From Coleofasciculus chthonoplastes F2-STO-03 (GTDB lineage Bacteria; Cyanobacteriota; Cyanobacteriia; Cyanobacteriales; Coleofasciculaceae), in the NCBI GenBank assembly GCA_040222015.1, contig JAVJWO010000155.1, positions 1-30,598 of the forward strand: a stretch of DNA of 30,598 bases, in the 5' to 3' direction. Positions 4,032-30,232 of the stretch are shown here, in pieces (the first letter of the stretch is position 1; each line of letters begins with the position of its first letter). The position numbers and the translations under genes were made by a program. Under the pieces are notes generated by a model, which saw only the letters and a list, made by a program, of their open reading frames with translations, made no database searches and was not told where the DNA came from.

Positions 4032-7000
4032 CTATAATCTTTTCAATTTTACGGCTTTTGTCTCTCCTTGACAGACCCAAGCCCCCCAGAAGTAAGGATG
4101 GGCGAGGGGTTGATCGGTTTCACTCAATTGTCGAGTCTGGGGTAGTAAATTCCCTAATTCCGCTAAGATGCTACACCCTAATTCAGAGTCCTGTAACTGT
4201 TTAACCGTAATTGTGCGAATATAATCTTGAGCCTGTTTTAATGCCACACGTCGTCCTATACCCTGACGCAGATTGGATAAGAAGCGATTCATCAACAAAG
4301 CCGTCGCGCGATCGGGAACTGACCAAAGGCTCATGATTAAGGTTTTGGTTCCGGCTATGGCAAAGGCGCGACGCAAGCCGAACACTCCTTCACCCAGTTT
4401 CACATCCCCGATTCCAGTTTGGCAGGCGGAGAGGATAGCGAGTTCGGTTTCCCAGAGGTCAAGGGCGGCGATGTCTTGGGCGAATACCATGCCTTTTTCA
4501 GCGGCGGCGGGTAAGGGTTTGCCTGCTAGCCAACGGTTCGCGCCCGCAAAGGCGAGGGCGGAACGTAACATTGGATCTTCAGGATCGGAGGTTGAGGGGG
4601 TTTGGGGGGATTGAATGATTGCCTTAATTCTGGGGATGAGAGTTCGCAACTTGTGAGCAGGATTGGGGTTTCCTTGTTTGGTGAGGAAGGTGGCGACTGT
4701 TTCGATTTCCTCCAGTAATGTCTCGTTGAGCAGCTTGTGGTTATGGTATAAGATAGTCGCTTCTTGTCCATTGGGGCAAGTGAGTAGGGCTAAGATTAAA
4801 TTGTCATAGTCTGGCTGTTGCATGGATTTGGAGAAATAGCCGTGGGTGGCGATTAATAGGAGTTCTGGGGATTGGCAATGGGTGAGGTGAGAGGCGAGGG
4901 CGTCTTTGCCAAAGTAGGGGGGGATGTTGAAGCGTTGGGCGATGCTTTCTCCCAGGCGGCGGGTGCCTTCGGCGTGTTGGAATCGGGAATTGGTTAGGGT
5001 TTGTATGAGAGTGGCGATTGAGTTCTGTTCATTAGGGGAGACAGAGGGCGGGTTTTGTTGAGAGGTTGGCGGTGTTGAGGCTATGTTATCGGCTAAACCC
5101 GCCCCTACAGGTGTTTCGATGGCTATGTTATCGGTTAAACCCGCTTCTACAGGTGCTACGAGGTCAAAATCGGGGTCAGCAATAATTAACGGGGGAGAGG
5201 ATGGGCGATTGGTTTGAATTTTCGAGCGCAAGATATCTCGCCCACCGCTAAGATAACTGATGGCGTACTCGTCTCTTAGCAGAGTTTCTCCTGTCTCATC
5301 ACTGGGGAGAAGGTCAAAAGGTAACAGGTTTAAATCCCCATCGGGGGCGAGGAATAGGGGTTGGTTGGGCTGCAAGTGGGGGCGCAGGGGGGCAAAAATC
5401 CGATGCTGTAATTCTATACCGTTGATGGGTTGGGGTGGTTCGTTTTCCTCTTCTTCCTCGTCATCGCCTCCCATGTCTAAAGATTGCACTGCTTTTACAG
5501 AGTCAGAGACATCGCGGCGAAAGTCCTGTATCAGTTGGTCAATCTCTTGGGCTGCGTCTAAGTATCGCATCTGCACGTTATCGGGTTGTCCGGCGGGTAG
5601 GATAAATGCTATATAACGGGCGGGTTGCCATTGAAATTGCTTATTAGTGGCGTGGAAATCAAAGACCTTAAAACAGACAAACTCGATTAAACTGCTACCT
5701 TCAGGTAGTGCTAAGGCGACAGTTTGACAGTCAATCCGTTGGTCTTGCAGTTGGATTTCTGGGACTTGGGCGGTCAGTTGTTTCTGTAGTTGGTTCTGTT
5801 CCCTTTGCAGTTGGGGAATCAGGTCAGGTCGAGGTTCGTGATAGATATAGTGGATAATCTGGTCGCTGAGTTGTCGCAGTTTCGTAAACTCCGATTGCAG
5901 ATGGGGATAATGCCCACTATGGATGGCTTGATTGAGGGCGGCGGAAGCGGCGGCGGTGAGGCATTTGCGCTGGAGGATTAAATCGAGTGCGGTTTGGATG
6001 GCGTGGGCAGAGTTGGGGAAATGCTGATAGATGAGAGAGAGGAATCGATCAAAATTATCTCTGACCGTTTGCAGAAAGGCAAGGCGATCGCTTTCCGAAC
6101 TGTAGGTAAAGGCTTGGTAAATTAAACGGTTCTCGATTGCCATTGCCTGTTTCATGTAGTCTAGCGCTTGATCATAGCGCTGGGTGGCAGCGAATAATGA
6201 GGCTAAATTATTGAGATTGATGGCAATATCAGGATGATTGCTAGTAAATAGTTGTTGACTCATTGCCAAGGCTTGCTGATAAAAGGATTCCGCTTCGCCT
6301 AGTTTTCCCTGTAATTCGTAGAGATGAGCTAAATTATTCAGACTTCTAGCCATATAAGGATGGTTACCAACAAACAGGCGCTGATTCATTGCTAAAGCTT
6401 GCTGATAAAAAGATTCTGCTTTGGCTAGTCTTCCCTGTGATTGATAAAGATAAGCTAAATTATTCAGACTTGTAACTATATCAGGATGGTCATTAGCAAA
6501 CAGGTGCTGCCTCATTGTGAAGGCTTGCTGTAACAGGGGTTCCGCTTCGGCTAGTCTTCCCTGAGATTGGTAAAGATAAGCTAAATTATGCAGACTTTGT
6601 GCCACATTTGGATGGTCATCAGCAAACAAGCGCTGTGTTATTGCCAGGGCTTGCTTTAACAAGGTTTCTGCTTCGGCTAATTTTCCTTGGGATTTGTAGA
6701 GTAAAGCTAAATTATTTAAACTTTGTGCCACATCAGGATGGTCATCAGTAAACAGGCGCTGCCACATTGCTAGGGCTTGCTGATATAAAGGTTCGGCTTC
6801 CGTTATTCTTCCCTGAGCATTGTAGATATAAGCTAAATTATTTAAACTTTGTGCCACATTAGAATGATCATCAGCAAATAATCGCTGATTCATTGCCAGA
6901 GCTTGCTGAAACAAGGGTTCGGCTTCCGCTATTCTTCCCTGAGCATTGTAGATATAAGCTAACTTATCTAAACTTTGTGCCACATGAGGATGATCATCAG

Positions 7001-7802
7001 CAAATAATCGCTGTCTCATTGCCAAGGCTTGCTGGGACAAGGATTCTGCTTCTACGAATTTCCCTTGAACATTGTAAATAGAAGCTAAATTATTCAGACT
7101 CGTGGCAACATTGGGATGATCACTGAAAAACAGGCGCTTATTTATTGCCAGGGCTTGTTGTAAAAAAGGTTCTGCTGCTATAAATTTTCCCTGAGATATG
7201 TAGAGTCCGGCTAAATTATTCAGACTGCAAGCAACATCAGGATGGTCATCAGCAAACAGGCGCTGTCTCATGGCTAGGGCTTTTTGATATAAGGATTCCG
7301 CTTCCGCTAATTTCCCCTGAGCATTGCAGATAGAAGCTAGATTATTCAGGCTTGTAGCTACTTTGGGATGATTATTAACAAACAGACGCTGATTCATTGT
7401 CAAGGCTTGTTTTAACAAGGGTTCAGCTTCTGCTAGTTTTCCCTGAGATTTGTAGAGTGCGGCTAAATTATTCAGACTTATCGCCACATCAGGATGGTCA
7501 TCAGCAAACAAGCGCTGTCTCATGGCTAGGGCTTTTTGATATAAGGATTCCGCTTCGGCAAATTTTCCCTGAGCATTGTAGAGATAAGCTAAATTATTCA
7601 GAGTCGCAGCCACATTGGTATGGTCATTTCCCCACAGTTTTTGGGCTAATGCCAATCCCGCTTCAGCTAGACTCACGGCTTGAGCAAATTGACCTTGATT
7701 ATAGAGTTGGAAAACTTGCTGATTTAGTTGTCTACAGCGTAATATCTGCTTGAGTCTCACGAATCTTATTACTAATGTTCGCAATCTATTCAAAACTCTC
7801 AT
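4032..7802 (-). CDS. TPR-repeat plus CHAT (caspase/HetF-like) cysteine protease
   Basis: About 12 42-aa SLNNLA-type TPRs followed by CHAT motifs APDGDLNLLPF, ADPDFD, IATHGYF (His), LSACQTG (Cys), GEGVFGLRRAF, SLWSVPD and HPYFWGAW. Confidence 0.92.
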   Translation of the reverse strand: MRVLNRLRTLVIRFVRLKQILRCRQLNQQVFQLYNQGQFAQAVSLAEAGLALAQKLWGNDHTNVAATLNNLAYLYNAQGKFAEAESLYQKALAMRQRLFADDHPDVAISLNNLAALYKSQGKLAEAEPLLKQALTMNQRLFVNNHPKVATSLNNLASICNAQGKLAEAESLYQKALAMRQRLFADDHPDVACSLNNLAGLYISQGKFIAAEPFLQQALAINKRLFFSDHPNVATSLNNLASIYNVQGKFVEAESLSQQALAMRQRLFADDHPHVAQSLDKLAYIYNAQGRIAEAEPLFQQALAMNQRLFADDHSNVAQSLNNLAYIYNAQGRITEAEPLYQQALAMWQRLFTDDHPDVAQSLNNLALLYKSQGKLAEAETLLKQALAITQRLFADDHPNVAQSLHNLAYLYQSQGRLAEAEPLLQQAFTMRQHLFANDHPDIVTSLNNLAYLYQSQGRLAKAESFYQQALAMNQRLFVGNHPYMARSLNNLAHLYELQGKLGEAESFYQQALAMSQQLFTSNHPDIAINLNNLASLFAATQRYDQALDYMKQAMAIENRLIYQAFTYSSESDRLAFLQTVRDNFDRFLSLIYQHFPNSAHAIQTALDLILQRKCLTAAASAALNQAIHSGHYPHLQSEFTKLRQLSDQIIHYIYHEPRPDLIPQLQREQNQLQKQLTAQVPEIQLQDQRIDCQTVALALPEGSSLIEFVCFKVFDFHATNKQFQWQPARYIAFILPAGQPDNVQMRYLDAAQEIDQLIQDFRRDVSDSVKAVQSLDMGGDDEEEEENEPPQPINGIELQHRIFAPLRPHLQPNQPLFLAPDGDLNLLPFDLLPSDETGETLLRDEYAISYLSGGRDILRSKIQTNRPSSPPLIIADPDFDLVAPVEAGLTDNIAIETPVGAGLADNIASTPPTSQQNPPSVSPNEQNSIATLIQTLTNSRFQHAEGTRRLGESIAQRFNIPPYFGKDALASHLTHCQSPELLLIATHGYFSKSMQQPDYDNLILALLTCPNGQEATILYHNHKLLNETLLEEIETVATFLTKQGNPNPAHKLRTLIPRIKAIIQSPQTPSTSDPEDPMLRSALAFAGANRWLAGKPLPAAAEKGMVFAQDIAALDLWETELAILSACQTGIGDVKLGEGVFGLRRAFAIAGTKTLIMSLWSVPDRATALLMNRFLSNLRQGIGRRVALKQAQDYIRTITVKQLQDSELGCSILAELGNLLPQTRQLSETDQPLAHPYFWGAWVCQGETKAVKLKRL
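5045..5155. repeat. GTAG-type REP element inside the CHAT gene, translated in frame
   Basis: AGGGCGGGTTTTGTTG...CTAAACCCGCCCCTAC plus a 42-bp-period duplication; same family as intergenic copies at 24420-24483 and 25973-26060. Confidence 0.85.
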
Positions 7803-7870
7803 TATCTACTCCTTTTAATGATGTGATTGATTCTTCTAGTTTCCCGATTTCAATTTCCGTAGTTGTCGAG

Positions 7871-8196
7871 TGTGTTAGTGAAGGGTAACGTATCCTTAAA
7901 GGCTTTGGTGGGTTACGGCGGATTGTTCCGTTTCCGGTTATGTGCCATAGTTTTGTTCCCGCCTAACCCACCCTACCGATACCGAGACTTAGGAGTGTTT
8001 GAATTAGATTGAAATACCCTTGAATTCGTTGTTCGTCCATGGTTAATAATTGTGTAGGGGCGCAAGGCTTGCGCCCTGTTTTCCGATGTGTTCGTGAAGG
8101 GTAACGTATCCCTTAAAGGCTTTGGTGGGTTACGGCGGATTGTTCCGTTTCAGGTTATTTTCAATAGTTTTGTTCCCGCCTAACCCACCCTACCGA
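7871..8196. repeat. Two ~108-bp direct repeats (GGTGGGTTACGGCGG...CCGCCTAACCCACCCTAC hairpins) flanking a short GTAG REP
   Basis: Blocks at about 7871-7978 and 8088-8196 are near-identical; GTAGGGGCGCAAGGCTTGCGCCC at 8054 lies between them. Confidence 0.85.
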
Positions 8197-8206
8197 GACT
8201 ATCTTG

Positions 8207-8247
8207 CTCCCCTCTCCCGGCGTGGGAGAGGGGCTGGGGGTGAGGGG
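8207..8247 (-). repeat. Inverted copy of the 3074-3115 hairpin repeat
   Basis: Its reverse complement matches 3074-3115 except for one G. Confidence 0.85.
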
Positions 8248-8282
8248 TTTAGTTTAAGTTGACACGGACAACCCAACCTCAA

Positions 8283-9191
8283 TTACACCGTCACCTGATA
8301 CGCCATCCGCAAAAGTTGGGAGTCGCGGTCATCCTTTACATAGTCCAATAACCCTGTTAAATGCCCTTCCTGCAATTGTAATAAAGGTTCACCTGGTTTC
8401 GGTAGCCAGTCTAACTCGGGTAAATTCCGGGTAATGACTGCTACAATTTCCTCCCAACCTGTTGAACCTGTTAACTTAAAATACCGATGACGAGAACTGG
8501 CTAAGGGTAACGTTATTCTTCCTCCTGAATGTCGCCATTCTGGTGCAAATCCAGAGGGACATAAACACCAAAGTTTCCCCGATGTACCTTTTTCTAATAG
8601 GAGTAAATAGCCCGCCTGTTCCAGATTGATATCTAAGCGAATTTTACTGTTTAACGGAATTGATATGGGGGCAGTTTCGTCAATTTCTGCCTCTCCCATC
8701 TCTAAATCTGACAGCCGTTTCGGATTTAATGAGACAGGCTGCAATTTATCATTGAGCAAAATCGGCTGCATTTTATTGGTTGGCTTGGCTTGTCCCCAAA
8801 GTTCCCGCCAAAGTTCCTCACAGGTGAGAGGAATAATACGGCGCTGTTTGACCCATTCTGGATACAATACCTCACGTAAATAGCGCTTGGCTATTTTCCA
8901 CTTCCCCTTGGTGATTCCCTGGTAGTCGCACCCCTGCGCTTCAAACTTGTCACAAATGGCGATTAAATGGTCGCGGAGAATGGTTGCTGGATTTGACCCA
9001 TCACTGGTTCCTTCTAGTAATTCAGCCTCTAGATACAAGGCGATATCTTTATTCGTTGCATTACTATTTTTATCCTGGAAGCGTGCGAGAAATACATCCC
9101 AGGTTTTGCCAGATAAGCCGAGGCGAGTGGCGATGGCTTTGAGGAATTCGTCCTCATGGATGTCATATTTGGGTAGGTTCATGATTGTCAC
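8283..9191 (-). CDS. N-terminal helical (HTH-like) domain plus C-terminal DUF4384-like domain protein
   Basis: 302 aa, alternative ATG start at 9182. C-terminal IRLDINLEQAGYLLLLEKGTSGKLWCLCPS...GWEEIVAVIT resembles DUF4384. The HTH call is tentative. Confidence 0.7.
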   Translation of the reverse strand: MTIMNLPKYDIHEDEFLKAIATRLGLSGKTWDVFLARFQDKNSNATNKDIALYLEAELLEGTSDGSNPATILRDHLIAICDKFEAQGCDYQGITKGKWKIAKRYLREVLYPEWVKQRRIIPLTCEELWRELWGQAKPTNKMQPILLNDKLQPVSLNPKRLSDLEMGEAEIDETAPISIPLNSKIRLDINLEQAGYLLLLEKGTSGKLWCLCPSGFAPEWRHSGGRITLPLASSRHRYFKLTGSTGWEEIVAVITRNLPELDWLPKPGEPLLQLQEGHLTGLLDYVKDDRDSQLLRMAYQVTV

Positions 9192-9285
9192 CGATTCTGT
9201 GGCTTTACCCCGATTATAAATAGGTAAAATTGACCTGGAAACCCCGGTTCTACTTCGATCTACATTCTTCTATTTCCGGAACTGT

Positions 9286-9389
9286 TAACCTGTAATGCAT
9301 TTAAATTGGGGAGGAGTAGCAAGCAAGATCCTCGCACTACCAGGACTTGGCATTCCTTGGCATTAAGGGTTAAGTTCTGAACAGCTTAC
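9286..9389 (+). mobile_element. ~104-bp MITE/REPIN-like element with one internal GTAG hairpin
   Basis: Ends and interior align by eye with the reverse complement of 25042-25345. Confidence 0.6.
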
Positions 9390-9557
9390 CCCTCACCCCC
9401 AGCCCCTCTCCCACCGTGGGGAGAGGGGAGCAATGGCGCGTCTGGAAGCAGGGGGAGAAGACATTAAATTTAAAGCTTATCCGAGCAGTATTGAGGGCGC
9501 AAGAGAGTCCGGTTCCCCTTCTCCCTCGATGGGAGAAGGGGTTAGGGGATGAGGGTG
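9389..9557. repeat. Cluster of hairpin repeats, including AAGCTTATCCGAGCAGTATTGAGGG
   Basis: Copies of the 3074 family at both ends; the middle segment recurs at about 21445-21500 (AAGCTTATCCGAACAGTATTGAGGG). Confidence 0.75.
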
Positions 9558-9644
9558 AATCGATCTATTTGAGTCTACTTTTTTCCACACTATTGCCAGC
9601 ATTTCAGGTCTAACGTAGAGGAAATAACTAGAAAGGACAACACC

Positions 9645-9833
9645 ATGAAAACGACAAACACTTCAACCATTCCGATGACAGCCAATCAATCTGACGTTTT
9701 ACCCGCCAATTCCCAAACCCTTCTGGTTAATGGTGGCGTAACCATTTTAGCTATCGTAGCGCTAACCTATTTCACGAAAACGTTAATTGAATCAATTGCC
9801 AAACTTTTAGCACTGAAGCATCCGCCACAATAA
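9645..9833 (+). CDS. Small predicted single-TM peptide (62 aa), divergent from the DUF4384-like gene
   Basis: AAAGGA Shine-Dalgarno upstream of ATG; hydrophobic segment LLVNGGVTILAIVALTYFTKTLI. Confidence 0.65.
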   Translation: MKTTNTSTIPMTANQSDVLPANSQTLLVNGGVTILAIVALTYFTKTLIESIAKLLALKHPPQ

Positions 9834-10001: not shown

Positions 10002-10421
10002 TTACTTCTCTCTAAAATGCTCTAATAACTGGCTCACGGTGAATATGGATACTGCCGTTGTTTGAAAATCCTGGGGATTGCGGGTAACAATCGCATCTAC
10101 CTGCTAGACAACAGCACAGGCTATTTGAACAGCATCCTCAAAGTCTACTAAGCCGGAATTGAGAGCCGTATTCAAAACTGTATAATCCACAGGACAGACA
10201 GTCAAAAGCGTTAACGTTTGAGTCAAGATTTGTCTGGCTTGTTCAAGATTTTGTGTCTGCCGTTTACAGATATAAAAAATATCCGTTGCACTGGATGCAC
10301 TAATTAAACCTTCTATACGTTCGGCAGCAATTGCCTCAAAAACTTCACTAGCTAGCTGAAAAAATGGCTCCCGTTCCAGAAAGAAATCGAGAATAATGTT
10401 TGTATCCAGAAGAACTCTCAC
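10002..10421 (-). pseudogene. PIN-domain (VapC-like) toxin interrupted by in-frame TAG at 10104-10106
   Basis: MRVLLDTNIILD and DFEDAVQ motifs; past the TAG the frame continues QVDAIVTRNPQDF...EHFREK to TAA at 10002-10004, giving 139 codons. Confidence 0.85.
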
Positions 10422-10651
10422 TTGAGGTACTTCTCCACTAAGCGGTCTTCTCGCATCAACTCAATATCTGTATCGGTTAGAACTGGCTGACCGGGTTTTT
10501 TCAGACAACCTCGTAGCTGATTAACAAGGGTACGACGTTCCGATTTTGATGGGTGTCTAACTTTCAACGCTTGAACTAAGGTTTCCAGCAGAACGAATTG
10601 TTCTTCAACAGATAATTGGTAAATAGCTCGCTGTAGCTCTGGTAAAGTCAT
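10418..10651 (-). CDS. Putative antitoxin of a PIN toxin-antitoxin pair
   Basis: 77 aa, directly upstream and overlapping the PIN start by 4 nt (GTGA); LRGCLK...RLVEKY tail is typical of PIN partners. Confidence 0.7.
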   Translation of the reverse strand: MTLPELQRAIYQLSVEEQFVLLETLVQALKVRHPSKSERRTLVNQLRGCLKKPGQPVLTDTDIELMREDRLVEKYLK

Positions 10652-14728: not shown

Positions 14729-17700
14729 TCATTCAGAACCACCAAATCCTCCACCCCCAGGCGTCTCAATCACAAACACATCTCCCGTATCCATTTCCAC
14801 AACCGCAGTATTTCCTAATTCCTCAACCGTTCCATCCTGACGTTCCACATAATTTTTCCCCACAGCACCCGCTTTACCCCCCTGTAATCCAAAGGGTGCA
14901 ACAACTCGATGTCCCGATAAAATTGCGGCTGTCATCGGTTGCAAAAACCGCATCCGTCGAATTACACCATTACCCCCACACTGTTTCCCCTTTCCACCAC
15001 TATTTCCGCGAATGCCAAACTGTTCTAATACCACCGGAAACCGCCATTCTAAAACTTCTGGATCGGTTAAACGAGAATTGGTCATGTGGGTATGCACCGC
15101 ATCCGCCCCATCAAACTCTATTCCAGCACCGGAACCGCCACAAATGGTTTCATAATATTGATAATTTTCATTGCCAAACGTAAAATTATTCATTGTTCCT
15201 TGAGATGCAGCCATTACCCCTAAAGCCCCATATAGCGCATCCGTAATCACCTGGGATGTTTCCACATTTCCCGCCACAACCGCCGCCGGATAACAAGGAT
15301 TTAATAGACATCCTTCGGGAATAATAATATCTAGAGGTTTGAGACATCCAGCGTTCAATGGAATATCATCATCCACTAATGTACGGAAGACATAGAGAAC
15401 CGCCGCTTTACACACCGCAGCTGGGGCATTAAAGTTATTGGATAACTGTGCCGATGTCCCAGTAAAATCAATCGTAGCGCGGCGACTTTTTCGGTCAATA
15501 TCAATGGCAACTTGAATCTGTCCACCTGTATCTAAATTATAGGTAAAATTGCCATTTTTCAGCACATCAATCACCCGTCGCACCGACTCTTCGGCATTAT
15601 TCTGGACGTGTCCCATATAAGCTTGTACGGTATCTAATCCCGACTGTTTCACCATCCGCCGCAACTCTTGCACACCTTTTTAATTGGCAGCAATTTGGGC
15701 TTGTAAGTCGGCGATATTTTGAGTAATATTTCGCACTGGATACGTGCCAGATAGGAGTAATTCGGATAATTCTTTTTCGCGAAAACGTCCGGATTCTACT
15801 ACCTTAAAATTATCGATTAATACTCCTTCTTCGTCTACAGTTGTACTATCCGGTGGCATGGAACCGGGGGTAATTCCACCAATATCCCCATGGTGTCCCC
15901 GTGAAGCGACGTAGAATAATGGCGACGGATTTTTATCCACCCTTGCCCTGCTTTCAAAGGGGGGTTTATTTAAGTCAAGGGATGATGTCGTTGTGGATTT
16001 TGTCGAAGATTTGCTTGTTTGATCAATCGTATCGGTAATCCCGCTTTCGTCCAGAAAAACTGGGGTAATCACCGTGACATCAGGCAAGTGTGTCCCACCA
16101 TTATAGGGATTATTAATCGCATAAACATCTCCCGGTTGGAGACTATCGCCATACGCCTCAATTAAACTGCGAACGCTTTCACTCATTGAACCCAAATGTA
16201 CGGGAATATGAGGGGCATTGGCAACGAGTTGTCCTTGTCCGTCAAAAATAGCACAGGAAAAATCTAACCGTTCTTTAATATTAACCGAGTAACTGGTATT
16301 TTGCAGTGTGGTTCCCATTTGTTCGGCAATGGAACGGAATAAATTATTAAAGATTTCCAGAGTAACCGGATCAGGGTAGGAAAGTTCTGACTGTTGACTG
16401 TTGACTGTTGACTTTTTACTTTTGACTTTTGATTGCTGCGTTTTCTTTAAAATTAAATGATTCCGTTCGGTTACTTCGGCTTGCCAACCCGGTTCAATAA
16501 CATTCGTTCCCGTTGTTTCAATAATTAATGCAGGCGCGGGAATACAGTCTCCCGGTTGTAAATCGTCTCGCTTAAATACAGGGGTTTCGTGCCATGCATT
16601 GGCAGTATACATCTGCACCTTAGCGACAGGTTGCGGCGGTTCTGAGCGGTGACGCTGAATCACGGGTTCTTCTGGCACATCCATCTGTTGGATCACTTCC
16701 ACAGATACCGAATCCACAATTAAGGCTTTCTCTTCCACAATAAAACCATAACGCTGGCGATGCGCCGCCTCAAATTGCTGCCGCATTTCAGCAACGCTAC
16801 CGAAATCGATAATTAAGGGTGAATCTGTCCCCTGATATTTCAAATGCACTTTGCAGATGACTTGACTATCAATTGGCGTGGATTCTCCTATATTTGTCGT
16901 CTCAATTTCCTCTTTTCCGCTGGCTATTAACTCGGTAAATATTTCCTCCAATGGGGCAATATCTGGTGTCCCTATAGACAGTAATTCCTCCGTTAATTTG
17001 GCTTCTACCGAACGTTCCCGCAAGGTTCGCACATCTGCCAATCCCATCCCGTAAGCCGATAATACGCCCGCATACGGATGAAGAAATACTTGTTTCATCC
17101 CCAAGGCATCAGCAATTAAGCAGGCGTGTTGTCCGCCAGCGCCGCCAAAGCAACATAAGGTATAGTTGGATACGTCATAACCTCGTTGTAAGGAGATTTT
17201 TTTGATTGCATTTGCCATTTTTTCGACGGCAATGGCTAAAAATCCGGCGGCGACGGCTTCGGGTGCGCGGTTATCGCCAATATCTGCCGCCAATTGACTA
17301 AATTTTTCTCGCACCACCTGGTCATTTAAGGGTAAATTGCCATCAAGTCCAAAGACTTTAGGAAAGAACTCTGGCTGCAATTTTCCTACCATGACATTGC
17401 AATCCGTTACTGTTAACGGACCTCCCTTGGAATACGAAGCGGGACCCGGATTTGCCCCCGCCGATTCGGGTCCCACGCGATACCGCGCCCCATCAAATTT
17501 CACGATTGAACCGCCGCCTGCTGCTACGGTATGAATGGACATCATGGGGGTGCGTAATCGAACCCCGGCAATCTCGGTTTCAAAGGTGCGTTCGTATTCC
17601 CCGTTGTAATGGGCGACATCAGTAGAAGTTCCGCCCATATCGAAACTGATAATCTGATTAAATCCGGCTAGTTGACTGGTTTGTACGGCGCCGACAATAC

Positions 17701-18535
17701 CTCCCGCCGGACCCGATAAAATACTGTCTTTTCCCTGAAATGTGCGGGCGTCTGTGAGTCCACCATTGGATTGCATGAACATTAATCGGAGGGATTGTTG
17801 ATTGTTAATTGTTGATTGTTGATTTTTGATTTCTCCGGTTAATTGATTGGAAACTTGGTTAACATACCGCCGCAGAATCGGGGATAAATAGGCATCAACC
17901 ACAGTAGTGTCACCCCGACTGACTATTTTCATCAAGGGTGTGACATCATGAGAAACTGAGATTTGAGTAAACCCGATCGCACTCGCTAGGTTGGCAAGTT
18001 CTTGTTCATGACTGGGATAGCGATAGCCATGCATTAAGACGATCGCACAACTGCGAATTCCGCGATCGTAAGCGGCTTGTAACGCTTGGCGAGTGGCGTC
18101 TATCTGCACCGGAATTAATTCCTGCCCGTGGGCGCTGTAACGTTCCTCGACTTCAATCACCCGTTCGTAAAGCATTTCTGGCAAGATAATCTCACGGGCA
18201 AATATATCGGGGCGGTTTTGATAGCCGATGCGGAGGGCATCGCGGAAGCCTTTGGTGATCATTAAAACGGTGCGATCGCCTTTTCTCTCCAGTAAGGCAT
18301 TGGTGGCGACGGTTGTCCCCATTTTCACGGCATCAATCTGTTCGGTGGGAATCGCTGCATCGGCGGAAAGTCCCATCACTTCGCGGATTCCCTGTACTGG
18401 CGCATCGGTGTAGCGATCGGGGTTTTCCGAGAGTAACTTGTGAATCACCAATTGTCCATCGGGGCGACGCGCCACAATATCGGTAAATGTGCCGCCGCGA
18501 TCGATCCAAAATTGCCAGCCGTTATTAGATGTCAT
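14729..18535 (-). pseudogene. Fused 5-oxoprolinase (hydantoinase A+B family) interrupted by in-frame TAA at 15680-15682
   Basis: [37 protein letters not shown] and ETPGGGG motifs. The two ORFs share a frame and read AQIAAN*KGVQELRRM across the junction. Confidence 0.88.
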
Positions 18536-21659: not shown

Positions 21660-24368
21660 ATGCAGCGTTTCGTCAGGGCACTGAATATGACTACCACCTT
21701 AGCCTATAACTACCAATTTGGCGGATGCCTACCCGCCGATTCCCCCACTTATGTGTGGCGACAGGCAGATGTTGAACTCTACAACGGGTTAAGGGCGGGG
21801 GATTTCTGCTATGTCCTCAACTCCCGACAGATGGGGAAATCTAGCTTGCGGGTGCAAACCATGCGCCGCTTACAAGGGGAAGGATTTGCTTGTGCGGCGA
21901 TTGACCTGACTAAGATTGGTTGCCAACATCTCACCCCAGAGCAATGGTATGCTGGCTTAGTCCGTCGCTTGGTAATTAGTTTTAATCTGACCCAACAATT
22001 TAACTTGCGTCGATGGTGGCGCGATCGCGATTTACTTTCGCCCGTACAACGCTTCAGTGAGTTTATTGAACGCATCCTCCTCCCGGCGATTCCGCAACCG
22101 ATTGTTATTTTTATTGATGAAATTGATACGGTTCTCAACTTAAACTTTCGCGTCGATGACTTTTTAGCGGCGATTCGCGCTTGTTATGATAGTCGTGCCG
22201 ATCATCTCGCCTACCAACGCCTCACATTTGCCCTGTTAGGTGTCGCGACTCCCTCAGAGTTAATTCAAGATAAACATAGCACCCCATTTAATATTGGTCG
22301 GGCAATTGAACTGACAGGCTTTGAATTAAATGAATGTTTACCCTTAGCCCAGGGATTAGCCACCCACGTTAACTATTCTCCCGCCATTATCCAGGAAATA
22401 TTAACTTGGACAGGGGGTAAACCCTTTCTCACCCAAAAGCTGTGTCAGATTGTCCTGCACCAAGCCGAACTTTGGTTACCCACGAAGATTCCCCAAGATA
22501 AATCCCAAATTAGCGTGTGGATTGAACAGTTGGTGCGATCGCACATCATTGATAATTGGGAAGCCAACGATGAACCCGAACACCTAAAAACCATTCGCGA
22601 TCGCCTATTACCCAACTGTGCCAGTACCCGTCAACTTTTAACACTCTACCAGCAAATTCTCGATCAGGGAGAAATCCCCGCCGATAATAGTCCAGAACAA
22701 TGGGAATTGCGCCTATCAGGATTGGTAGTGAAACAGCCAATCGGACAGAAATACGCCCAGCCTGTTCTGAGAGTCTATAACCGCATTTATTCCTCTATCT
22801 TTAATCAGAATTGGGTAACCCATGTCCTGAATAATCTGCCCCCGTATCACTCCACTATGACGGCTTGGTTTGCCAGTGGGGGTCAGGATTCGTCTTATTT
22901 GTTGAACCGAAACCAATTACAACAAGCCTCAGTTTGGGCAAAAGGGAAACGCTTAAATCAAAAGGACTACCAGTTCCTGAATGCGAGTCGTCAGCAGGTT
23001 ATCGCTAGTTCTGATCAAGGAAACAGCAACCCCCAGAAACAATTAGATACAACATCGACAAGAAAACCCTCTGCCCAACCTACCCCTCCAGACTTCTTAC
23101 CAACGTCTCCGCCGCGTTCCTTGAGTGCCGACGAGCAGATATTATATGATCATTTACTCTATTGGGTACAACGAGAATCCCCCCAGCAACTCATCGAACG
23201 ATTTGAACAACTATTTATTACCGCGAAAAACTACCCCGAACCCGACATTATCGCTGCCTTCCACCGAATTATCCTCGCTAATCCCCGCCATCAAGACTTT
23301 ACCCATATTCTCAATCGGTGCTGCCATATCTTGATTAATCGTTGGCAAATGCAAGGCAACCAAGATTATGCGATCGCGCAATTGGTGGCATTATTTGAAA
23401 AAACCTTTCAACCGGGGACAATTAAAGCGACGTCGGGACTATCAAAGCGATTGCGACAACTCTTGCAAGTATTTACTCAAAGTGAAGACTTTCAAAGCCT
23501 AAAACGCTTGGTCAAAGTTGTTGATCACACCGCTGATGTCGATCGCCAAGACTCTAATCCCGCCTTAGGACAATTGATTTGTCGATACCCTTATTTATAC
23601 ACCCACGCCTTACTAAGTTCCGATAGTTCCTACGAACACCAGCAAACTATCCGCCACATTCAAACTCAACGTCAGTGGCAATTAGAAATGAACCTCTCTC
23701 AATATGTCACTTATCTAATCCGGCGAGTGCGACTGGCGTCCAGTAAAACCCCCACCCCAGACACCACTTTGGTTCAACCTGTACCCAATCCGACTCTGTT
23801 AAGCGATCGCGAACTCTACTTCGCCTTGAAGCAATTTATGGGTAAAGTTGAAGGAGCTTACACTTACCGAGACTTAGCCCAACGTTTTCTCAAGCAAAGT
23901 AATCAAACGCGCTCTTATCGTGCTTTTAAAGCCGATTTATATGAATACCTAATAGCGGCAATTGAACCCACCTATGGTAAACATCAATTCAATCAGCGTT
24001 TAGCGCAACATCTCAAAAACACCTTACCGGATAGCGATCCTAAAAAAATAAACGACTTTTTATTGCTGAGAACCTGTAGTCAATTACTGAGTTTCTTAGT
24101 CAGCAGTCCTCAGCATCCCAATCACTATGTCTTTATTGATTTAATTTCTAATATGGGGTCGATTCGCACAACGGGATTATTGCTGAAAATCATTCTGCTG
24201 TGTGGCAAAGTTAAACCGGATTTAGAAAAGCGATTTTCACTTTTGTTCAATCACTACGAATGTCAAACAATTAATGATATTTTTTGGTTGGTTCAATCTC
24301 TAGAAAATCTTAATGTTGCCTTTTTTGTCAATTTTGGCAATATGGATCTGTCTCGGATTCAAAAGTAA
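21660..24368 (+). CDS. AAA-like (AAA_35-type) ATPase fused to an uncharacterised C-terminal domain
   Basis: SRQMGKSS Walker [10 protein letters not shown] Walker B, TPFNIG and [13 protein letters not shown]; likely start is the ATG at 21687. Confidence 0.85.
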
Positions 24369-28018: not shown

Positions 28019-30232
28019 ATGACATCTATGAAGCGTCGTCAGTTTATCCAATTTGCTACCTCGGCTTTAGCAACCATCGGTTTAAACCAACTGGATTTAC
28101 AGCGCCAATCCTTACGCTATGGTAAAGTCTTAGCCCAAAGCACCTCCCGCAAACTTGCCCTGTTAGTGGGGATTAACCAGTATCCCACCAATAGCGATCG
28201 CTTTACTAGCCTCTCTGGATGCGTCAATGATGTTCGCTTGCAGGAACAACTCCTGATTAATCGCTTCGGGTTCCAGCCGGAGGATATCAAGACAGTTACG
28301 GATACCGAGGCGACTCGTGATGGCATTTTAACCGCCTTTGAAACCCATTTAATTCAGCAAGCCAAACCCGGAGATGTGGTAGTGTTTCATTTCTCGGGAC
28401 ATGGTTCACAAGTCATTGATCCCAATCCCATTGATCCGACTTATCCCCTGAATAGTTCCTTTGTTCCTGCGGATGAACATTGGCAAGCTGATAAAGGTAT
28501 TGTCAATGAAATTACCGGACATACCCTATTTTTACTCATGTTCGCCCTGAAGCAGAAAACCGACAACGTTACTGTGGTGCTGGATAGTTGTCATTCGGGG
28601 GGCGGAACCCGGGGAAATGTGAAAATCCGGGCGATTCCTGGGGGCGTGGATTTCCGGATTAGTCCCGAAGAAGTCGAGTATCAACAACAATGGCTAAAAC
28701 GGCTGAATCTATCCCCTGAAGACTTGATCAAATTGTATCAGCAAGGCGTCGCCACTGGCGCGGTGATTGCTTCAGCCCAACGGGAACAATTCGCGGCGGA
28801 TTATCCCTTTCCCGGGTTTTATGCGGGAGCCTTTACCTATCTGCTCACCCAAACATTATGGCAGAATAACCATGATGTGGAAAGTGCGATCGCGGGAATT
28901 GAACGGGATATGCGATTCCTTTCCACCCAAATCCCCCTGGTAGAGGTTCCCCCGAATAGTCGCCATCAACGAGAACCGATTTATTTCACAGAACCCAAAA
29001 CCTTCCCCGCCGAAGGTGTGGTGACAACGGTGGAAAATAATCGGGTACAAGTTTGGTTGGGGGGTATTTCCCAAGAGAGTTTAGAGGCGATTTCTGAGGG
29101 GTCTATTTTTACCCCCCCATTCCGCAGTCGCGGCGAAACCCCCAAAGTTGAATTAATCTCACGCAACGGCTTAATCGCTGAAGCCAAAGCCGAAGGAAAC
29201 ATCCAACCGGGAGAATTATTACAGGAATTTGCCCGCACAATTCCCAGGGATTGGAAACTCCATATTGGACTTGATCCGTCGTTAACCAAGGAGACAGAAA
29301 CGGCAAAAACTGAACTGGAATCACTAAAACGGATTCAACCGATTCTTCCCCAACCGGGAGAGTTTCCCTATCCGGTGGATGTGCATTATATTCTCAGTCG
29401 GATGACGGATGAGTATCAGCGGCAATTGTCATTAGAGACACCGGATAAAATGCCACCTGTGGATAGTTTAGGTTTATTTTCTCCAGCCTTAGAAGTGATT
29501 CCCGATTCCTTTGGCATACCGGGAGAAACAGTGACTAAAGGAATTGAACGGTTACAGGGGAAACTGAAATCTCTGCTAGCGGCGCGAATTATGCGAATGA
29601 CACTCAATGCTGAATCCTCGCGGCTAAATTTAGAGGTAACAATGGGTTTAGAAAATCGTCCCGAAATTGTTGCCCAAGCCTTTACACCACGGGGGTGTCG
29701 TCAAGATGACAGTAAATGTCCACCGTTAGGGAGTCGCAGCGAATCTGGGCAACTTCTGAGTCATCAATTATCTGTGGGAGATGCGTTTCAGTTTCGAGTG
29801 ACGAATCGGGAAGAGAAGGATTTACATTTGGGAATTATGTTGGTTGATCCAACTGCTGGAATTACGGTTTTATTTCCCAATGAATTGCAAGAAACCTCAC
29901 GGCAAGATCCGGATAATGCCACCCGGCTTCAGCCGAATCAAACGCTGTTAATTCCGAATCCGAATAAAGATGAATTTGTCTTTATTGCAGAAGAGGCTGG
30001 CTTGGGCGAAGTCTTAATTGTCGCCAGTGATCAACCCTTAACTAAAGCCTTACTCAAAATGCGTACCCTTGCCAGAGGAAAAAAGGGGATAGTTTCGACG
30101 CGGGGAGAAGACTCATTGGAGATAATTAATGATTTAGTTGATGATGTTAGTCGAGGCGCACAAGTGGGAGTAAGGCGGAGGATTCGCACCTCACAAATGG
30201 CAGCGCTTTCGATTACTTTTAATGTGGTTTAA
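28019..30232 (+). CDS. Caspase-family (peptidase C14, orthocaspase-like) protease with twin-arginine N-terminus and C-terminal DUF4384-like domain
   Basis: KRRQFI; KLALLVGINQY, LSGCVNDV, FHFSGHG (His) and LDSCHSG (Cys); C-terminal VGDAFQFRVTN...ITVLFPN. Confidence 0.9.
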   Translation: MTSMKRRQFIQFATSALATIGLNQLDLQRQSLRYGKVLAQSTSRKLALLVGINQYPTNSDRFTSLSGCVNDVRLQEQLLINRFGFQPEDIKTVTDTEATRDGILTAFETHLIQQAKPGDVVVFHFSGHGSQVIDPNPIDPTYPLNSSFVPADEHWQADKGIVNEITGHTLFLLMFALKQKTDNVTVVLDSCHSGGGTRGNVKIRAIPGGVDFRISPEEVEYQQQWLKRLNLSPEDLIKLYQQGVATGAVIASAQREQFAADYPFPGFYAGAFTYLLTQTLWQNNHDVESAIAGIERDMRFLSTQIPLVEVPPNSRHQREPIYFTEPKTFPAEGVVTTVENNRVQVWLGGISQESLEAISEGSIFTPPFRSRGETPKVELISRNGLIAEAKAEGNIQPGELLQEFARTIPRDWKLHIGLDPSLTKETETAKTELESLKRIQPILPQPGEFPYPVDVHYILSRMTDEYQRQLSLETPDKMPPVDSLGLFSPALEVIPDSFGIPGETVTKGIERLQGKLKSLLAARIMRMTLNAESSRLNLEVTMGLENRPEIVAQAFTPRGCRQDDSKCPPLGSRSESGQLLSHQLSVGDAFQFRVTNREEKDLHLGIMLVDPTAGITVLFPNELQETSRQDPDNATRLQPNQTLLIPNPNKDEFVFIAEEAGLGEVLIVASDQPLTKALLKMRTLARGKKGIVSTRGEDSLEIINDLVDDVSRGAQVGVRRRIRTSQMAALSITFNVV

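Follow-up and report, generated by a model that had tools for sequence, protein, structure and literature searches.

A TPR-CHAT protease and its DUF4384-type neighbour in cyanobacteria share a co-varying motif: a predicted protease-gated transcription switch

Does a four-residue motif that occurs both in a protease and in the protein encoded beside it mark a cleavage site, and if so, what would the cut control? The question is raised by a locus of Coleofasciculus chthonoplastes F2-STO-03, on a stretch of 30,598 nucleotides (contig JAVJWO010000155.1; hereafter the window, and its genome the source genome). An earlier interpretation of the DNA (the sequence-only reading) had proposed that a TPR-CHAT protease and a co-oriented upstream protein share an L-[DE]-M-G-acidic motif, that both copies are cut with an unusual specificity for Met, and that cleavage releases an N-terminal domain controlling a divergent gene for a small membrane peptide. 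The genes and motif copies are the following.

4032..7802, minus strand: TPR-CHAT caspase-like protease of 1256 amino acids (aa), from Pfam CHAT and TPR families and fold matches
8283..9191, minus strand: partner protein with an N-terminal helical, helix-turn-helix (HTH)-like domain, a linker and an Ig-like DUF4384 domain, from Pfam and structure models
9645..9833, plus strand: 62-aa peptide with one hydrophobic stretch, likely an optional target gene; homologues face the partner gene in relatives
5469..5480, minus strand: L775-D-M-G778 motif in a flexible loop (aa 763-794) where the CHAT region begins, a predicted self-cleavage or decoy site
8694..8705, minus strand: L163-E-M-G166 motif in the disordered partner linker, with a predicted cut between L163 and E164

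On balance, we predict that the locus encodes a protease-gated transcription switch, in which the TPR-CHAT protease cuts the neighbouring HTH-DUF4384 regulator at L163↓E-M-G (arrow, cleaved bond). The basis of this reading is an intact catalytic dyad, a conserved gene pair, motifs in disordered loops, co-variation of the two motif copies and DNA arrays tied to the type of the partner's N-terminal domain.

The two Met codons lie at 5472-5474 (Met777) and 8697-8699 (Met165), and the peptides and the 13/14-nucleotide DNA match quoted in the sequence-only reading were correct. Model confidence (pLDDT) is low over the loop motif (protease model residues 160-172, i.e., aa 776-788) and in the stretch that holds the linker motif; both models are otherwise confident. 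Across 70 partner homologues, the motif positions are occupied by L in 69, D/E in 67, M in 66 and G in 60, and the two residues before them vary. The pattern L[DE]MG[GE][DEA], set after the fact, matched only two of the 3991 open reading frames (ORFs) of at least 200 aa in the source genome, exactly the protease and the partner. The acidic tail included in the original motif is not general, as variants such as LGARR, LGWGK and LGMRR occur.

We regard co-variation of the protease loop and the partner linker across genomes as the decisive sequence evidence that the match exceeds chance. Linkers and loops were excised using alignment anchors, and each pair was scored by its best ungapped 5-mer. 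The first locus set comprised 50 loci after one duplicate was dropped and gave 34 pairs, with one of two tandem partners at locus L061 omitted. Cognate pairs scored 20.97 and noncognate pairs 14.15 (P < 5 × 10−5). The result held when each cluster was reduced to a single member (14, 12 or 8 clusters; P ≤ 4.5 × 10−4) and when permutation was confined within clusters (P ≤ 2 × 10−4), and six of seven control pairings were not significant. A held-out set of 60 loci was picked from 150 listed order-wide matches for spread and room, with motifs unseen. Its 47 pairs, less three with linkers shorter than 10 aa, divided into 22 with a protease of the same CHAT family and 22 with one of a distant CHAT family. 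In the same-family pairs, the scores were 17.82 and 12.85 (P < 5 × 10−5, also for 11 cluster representatives; P = 0.0012 within clusters), and none of three control loops was significant. When the whole CHAT tail was scanned without restriction, P was 0.004.

Counted by column, with anchors chosen among regular-expression candidates, the three positions after Leu were identical in 21, 29 and 24 of the 34 pairs, against 10.4, 10.4 and 9.0 expected. Partner/protease pairs in the first set include LGWS/LGWS, LAWS/LAWS, LGARR/LGARR, LGLR/LGLR and LGMRR/MGMRK, and those in the held-out set include LGNRR/LGNRK, DRDLV/DRDLV and NRMI/KRMI. On the trees (quick or FastTree), the two copies switch in parallel between LDMG, LGMR, LGW-G/S, LGAR and LGLR, with LGNR added in the held-out set. 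In two loci of another CHAT subfamily (L050 and L053), an Arg motif of the partner appeared by eye to be echoed near the protease C terminus (RNVGRL/RDFGRL and RTLRMP/RSLRIP).

The two genes also stay together. In 35/36 first-set loci with at least 4 kb of room, the partner is followed by a co-oriented CHAT gene. The held-out loci contain 62 partner ORFs, 55 of them with room, and 46 of the 55 are followed by a CHAT gene (two broken genes were counted twice, and one overlapping CHAT gene was scored as a miss). In locus L004, decayed remnants of both genes sit side by side. The linkage, like the conservation and co-variation of the motif, came through the checks suggested with the sequence-only reading, and none of them refuted the proposal. 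Partner homologues were found in 24/52 genomes of the family and 24/401 of the phylum, and with a wider profile in 119/401 sampled genomes of the order (source genome counted each time); the partner is 88 to 98% identical to proteins in named Coleofasciculus records. The gap between the genes is 480 bp in the window, filled with repeat DNA, and 25 to 93 bp in several relatives. Within it, at 7862-8199, a palindromic element of about 120 bp occurs twice, 217 bp apart. At L067:4363-6060, a group II intron-type gene for a reverse transcriptase (RT)-maturase-HNH protein is inserted between partner and protease. L061:7117-9876 has a tandem partner pair with a single protease, whose loop is a good match for only one of the two partners.

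On the protease side, Pfam identified TPR repeats and a CHAT domain (PF12770, aa 797-1246; E = 5 × 10−52; 177.6 bits against a cutoff of 24). Both codons of the catalytic dyad are where the sequence-only reading had placed them.

4842..4844, minus strand: catalytic His987 (THG), H invariant in 30/30 family members
4422..4424, minus strand: catalytic Cys1127 (SAC), C invariant in 30/30 family members
6111..7634, minus strand: 12 tandem 42-aa TPR repeats, likely the sensor

The His-Cys dyad of the CHAT protein is intact. The TPR array varies, a close relative (L002) having a 1042-aa protease with about half the repeats. In a fold search with the protease model, 17/17 matches at E ≤ 0.001 were Craspase/Cas7-11-Csx29-type entries, followed by separase. 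Sequence identity to these Craspase/Csx29 matches is 10 to 12%; no sequence match to solved Csx29 was found, and a profile of the CHAT region gave no meaningful solved relative.

The motif is very probably read by the CHAT active site, and we think it probable that it is also cleaved. If so, the P1 residue is likely Leu, placing the cuts at L163↓E164 in the partner and L775↓D776 in the protease. The evidence comes from a sister clade of eight proteases in the held-out set. Seven of them have R-[DGNEM]-hydrophobic in both proteins under a fixed rule, the eighth (L103) being ambiguous, and their Arg occupies the Leu position of the window clade in the same loop. A matching change is seen in the catalytic domain.

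4953..4955, minus strand: Leu950, at the position usually occupied by the Glu of an LPxxxxE helix; the S1 pocket would thereby have changed from acidic to hydrophobic

Position 950 is Glu in 7/7 Arg-type proteases and Leu in 39/45 Leu-type proteases; read by eye, the LPxxxxE Glu is present in 40/42 other CHATs of the source genome, which holds 49 CHAT-like ORFs. The Asp of a SLWxVxD motif is lost in 11/30 family members versus 3/45 other CHATs of the source genome, and the residue after it is Arg/Lys in 38/45 Leu-type and 0/7 Arg-type proteases. The Arg-type sister clade retains both Glu950 and this Asp (Asp1164), which we take to be the likely counterpart of the Arg-binding Asp of separase, although a sequence search could not confirm this. 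These residues would line the S1 pocket. As Arg stands at the Leu position in the sister clade and the Glu is lost in the Leu-type clade, the cut is predicted to follow Leu.

Published CHAT cleavages offer precedents for both Leu and Arg at P1. Cuts after Leu are described as L↓D (PMC11106740) and L↓G (10.1101/2021.06.07.447441), and a cut after Arg is described for HetF-PatU3 (PMC9457339). Craspase cuts with a hydrophobic P1 (M↓K, L↓D, A↓S) at a site that varies among orthologues (10.1101/2022.08.17.504292, PMC11106740). The claim of an unusual Met specificity is not supported: Met at P1 would not be unusual, because Csx29 cuts after Met427 (AVGM↓K) (10.1101/2022.08.17.504292), and the sister-clade register favours Leu. 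That Csx29 site resembles L-G-M↓x, and a version of the same switch with the cut after Met (L-E-M↓G) would also fit the Met column being the one that co-varies best, identical in 29/34 pairs versus 10.4 expected. We nevertheless consider it unlikely. Across the family, M, W, F, L, I, A, V and N all occur at this column, which would require repeated rebuilding of the S1 pocket, whereas the Leu column is near-invariant (69/70) and is the site of Arg in the sister clade. By eye, no link was seen between the Met-column residue and the residues after the catalytic Cys.

Other explanations dispense with the cut. The motif might be a noncleavable pseudosubstrate, the partner being a securin-like inhibitor, the loop auto-inhibitory and the true target another protein. 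Securin blocks separase with a large hydrophobic P1, and auto-inhibitory loops of separase mimic substrate motifs (PMC10317155); retention of Asp1164 in the window protease would agree with this. This account also seems unlikely to us, as both copies contain Arg in the sister pairs of the Arg type, which look cleavable, the conserved Glu and frequently the Asp are missing from the Leu-type clade, and CHAT cleavage after Leu is documented (PMC11106740, 10.1101/2021.06.07.447441). Alternatively, the motif could be a docking peptide for the TPR groove, bound in cis by the loop until the partner copy displaces it without any cut, in the way that W-acidic motifs bound by kinesin light chain TPRs dislodge an autoregulatory linker (PMC13078783). 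Variants such as LDLWDDE and LNMWDDE look alike, but the motif stays constant while TPR number and N termini differ between close relatives, its class tracks residues of the catalytic domain, and the basic variants LGARR and LGNRK are nonacidic, which makes docking improbable. It is very improbable that the match reflects chance, shared ancestry or DNA copying between neighbours, with no function at the protein level. The motif is short, 13/14 nucleotides match, and the same codon is used at 43/98 identical degenerate positions between the copies, with 32.5 expected; yet the co-variation repeats in held-out pairs and within clades, is found in this loop only and comes with many synonymous differences. 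The frequent codon differences indicate that selection acts on the protein, and the DNA match is probably for the most part a consequence of the protein match. Given the codon comparison, DNA copying was dropped as an unnecessary cause.

If the partner is the substrate of the predicted switch, what would be released? Its DUF4384 domain (PF14326, aa 181-255) matched with E = 1.7 × 10−8 and 34.8 bits against a cutoff of 27. Residues are numbered here from the GTG at 9191, although the ATG at 9180-9182 is the likely start, giving 299 aa. The N-terminal domain resembles the effector domains of Spo0A (Z = 6.4; root mean square deviation [rmsd], 4.7; 100 aligned) and NarL (Z = 5.5; rmsd, 2.9; 64 aligned). 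A Foldseek search with the partner returned zero matches at E ≤ 0.001, a profile of the N-terminal domain found no meaningful solved relative by sequence, and an Atlas search was likewise empty. Among 553 candidates, none scored as a longer fused form of the C-terminal part, which is weak evidence. Of 150 listed matches, 35 were scanned; among these, proteins with NACHT, NB-ARC and AAA_35 domains begin with the N-terminal domain, and in one protein (P0071) it comes after a receiver domain. The HTH is swapped for TIR, DUF4062 and NNH5 domains in L037, L036 and L048, respectively.

A target for such a domain was sought in the intergenic DNA, where alignment revealed TCTAC repeats with a 10-bp period.

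9249..9273, plus strand: proximal operator candidate, three TCTAY pentamers at a 10-bp period, 8 bp from the −35 candidate
9564..9616, plus strand: distal operator candidate TCTAT/TCTAC/TCCAC (9564-9588), followed at 22 bp by a TAnnnT −10-like hexamer (9611-9616)
9213..9241, minus strand: sigma-70-like promoter candidate for the partner gene, TTTCCA-17-TATAAT, a consensus match only

The window contains exactly two phased triples, versus 0.01 expected, and TAnnnT follows at 22 bp in 9/11 distal boxes of relatives. The partner promoter candidate by itself is at chance level (4 found, 3.9 expected in shuffles). Arrays accompany 15/18 partners with the window-type N-terminal domain versus 0/25 without it (nine duplicate, same-species or truncated rows dropped), and in 59 held-out loci the counts are 12/17 versus 0/42; related loci in these counts are not independent. 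Beside some partners whose N-terminal domains have diverged, different pentamers recur with this period (GACAT, GTTAT, ATTTG, TTTAC). We therefore think it highly likely that the partner N-terminal domain binds the TCTAC arrays, which would be a candidate operator near the partner's own gene. A box over the −35 position combined with only a −10 element is the layout of activator-dependent promoters, and the distal array may thus give the peptide gene a promoter geometry of the activator type. In the source genome, the search revealed no wider TCTAC regulon: two of the three exact triples are the window locus and a decayed copy. The decayed copy (G000:C195:132064-132257) consists of a TCTAC array beside 160 bp of CHAT 3′ region, in frame with an ORF that by eye is rubisco activase-like. 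L061 has a TCTAC array upstream of a short hydrophobic ORF lying between partner and protease.

The divergent membrane peptide of the sequence-only reading is an ORF with a hydrophobic peak of 1.87 (19-residue Kyte-Doolittle) but not a fixed third member of the system. Homologues are divergent from the partner in L005, L038-L042 and L044 and truncated in L043; the gene is deleted in the close relative L001 and weakly present in 1/60 held-out loci, so that it is likely an optional target. The suggestion that the N-terminal domain controls the peptide gains a candidate operator upstream of the gene, although outside the home family other genes take the peptide's place. In L045, the facing gene encodes a Cas4-like nuclease, and in other relatives, short hydrophobic ORFs were seen by eye. 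In family f5 (L062-L074), an XRE-like HTH-DUF4384 partner and a TPR-CHAT gene stand head-to-head with RT-Cas1 or Cas1 (confirmed by Pfam in L062, L063, L068, L070, L071 and L073), at about 140 to 630 bp from the partner in most loci; protease control of spacer acquisition is possible there. The pattern of facing genes and swapped domains favours a role in defence or stress signalling. An Atlas search with the peptide matched only unnamed cyanobacterial clusters. At G000:C201:16700-17287 in the source genome, a peptide paralogue is transcribed divergently from a 796-aa gene whose start looks ATPase-like by eye; about three 33-bp direct repeats, not TCTAC boxes, precede the paralogue.

Taken in sequence, the switch would begin with the variable TPR array sensing a ligand, probably foreign or stress related, and activating the protease. 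The DUF4384 domain would present the linker, as the Csx30 C-terminal domain does, and cleavage would follow Leu because the S1 pocket would have become hydrophobic. The freed N-terminal domain would then bind the 10-bp-phased boxes cooperatively, turn on the divergent gene (in the window the peptide; in relatives a Cas4-like nuclease or further small membrane proteins) and feed back on its own operon. We lean slightly towards the cut activating rather than inactivating the regulator. The loop copy could compete as a decoy or be cleaved itself, thereby setting a threshold or acting as an off-switch.

Several results weigh against this scheme. The Arg-to-Leu switch and the loss of the Glu fall on one branch and so represent a single event, with many other columns differing as well, and the window protease retains Asp1164. 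The HTH fold matches of the partner are below Z = 8 and come without a Pfam or PDB sequence match, and genome-wide, TCTAY triples at period 10 are not enriched over other periods. In the held-out set, no downstream CHAT gene was scored for 9 of the 55 partners. Co-variation is weak in the distant CHAT subfamily, which has a different loop (P = 0.029 overall, 0.010 for cluster representatives and 0.62 within clusters), and some pairs match poorly, including L075, L086, L124 and L140. Finally, one first-set control reached P = 0.01 (excess, 1.1), and one of three controls in the whole-tail scan reached P = 0.04.

Among known systems, the closest likeness is to Csx29-Csx30 of type III-E (Craspase/CASP), a TPR-CHAT protease with a dedicated neighbour and the source of the best fold matches here. 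DUF4384 is one of the Csx30 C-terminal domain types (10.1101/2022.08.17.504292), and the partner likewise has such a domain beside its predicted cut linker. In type III-E, a released sigma factor has motifs at cas1, the output being transcription (PMC10028731). The window differs in having no cas7-11, csx31 or sigma gene among 19 ORFs scanned and in that the likely DNA-binding domain sits on the substrate itself. Its protease moreover carries a co-varying copy of the site, and none is reported for Csx29 in the accessible sources. PADLOC profiles gave only generic TPR matches and a weak PDC-M71B match, over the TPRs only, for the protease, none for the partner and no Csx29 or Csx30 match. The module would work like Csx29-Csx30 but is not a member of that system.

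HetF of Anabaena PCC 7120 is also a cyanobacterial CHAT protease with one regulatory substrate, PatU3, cut once after R117 (PMC9457339). HetF is, however, a transmembrane, Arg-specific CHAT protein with C-side periplasmic TPRs (PMC9457339), whereas the window TPRs precede CHAT and the shared motif has no Arg; the two were set apart by layout and site description. In Runella, a CHAT protease cuts a neighbouring gasdermin after L247 in a flexible loop, with Gly at P1′ (10.1101/2021.06.07.447441). There, the substrate is a pore-forming effector; the window partner is a predicted regulator, and no gasdermin is present. Separase shares the TPR-like plus CHAT architecture and flexible inserts with substrate-like motifs (PMC10317155) but is eukaryotic, Arg-specific and multi-substrate, whereas in the present case a single loop has followed the motif of a single neighbour over evolutionary time. 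No description of a TPR-CHAT/HTH-DUF4384 module was found in the literature, within the coverage of open papers.

To our knowledge, known substrates are lacking for the majority of bacterial CHAT proteases, and no function has been assigned to DUF4384. The locus allows predictions of a substrate, its scissile bond, a self-site, an operator and a target promoter. If the reading is true, the co-evolving site copy would be both a bacterial parallel to the auto-inhibitory loops of separase and a substrate-finding rule. Natural pairs with differing sites (LDM, LGW, LGA, RDL) would form an orthogonal protease set, and the divergent RT-Cas1 of one clade suggests protease control of CRISPR adaptation beyond type III-E. 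A wider idea, which we hold only tentatively and with some doubt, is that these are widespread, CRISPR-independent cyanobacterial switches resembling nucleotide-binding leucine-rich repeat (NLR) receptors, in which every TPR-CHAT protease bears a legible copy of the site it cuts, a diversifying lock-and-key code of loop and linker insulates CHAT paralogues, DUF4384 serves as an exchangeable "cut-me" module for HTH, TIR or other effectors, and one clade controls RT-Cas1 spacer acquisition. In that case, the loops of orphan CHAT proteases would allow their substrates and specificities to be predicted.

The locus is flanked by an exonuclease III gene on one side and by a PIN-domain pair followed by cytochrome oxidase genes on the other. 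Repeats around the partner gene were considered as possible element ends and rejected, since their core has 41 exact copies genome-wide.

8204-8248 and 9388-9433: a palindromic repeat found throughout the genome, in inverted copies on either side of the partner gene and outside the system

Elsewhere in the window, a Caspase (Peptidase_C14)-DUF4384 fusion 18 kb off (28019-30232, plus strand) provides a second link between a protease and DUF4384. An AAA_35 protein of 902 aa is encoded at 21660-24368 (plus strand). A 5-oxoprolinase-like gene (14729-18535, minus strand) is present as two ORFs, with the Hydantoinase_B domain divided between them. The PIN-domain gene and a small gene upstream of it (10104-10651, minus strand) are likely a toxin-antitoxin pair, and the PIN-domain gene is truncated in the source genome, with 105 aa versus 139 aa in L001 and L005.

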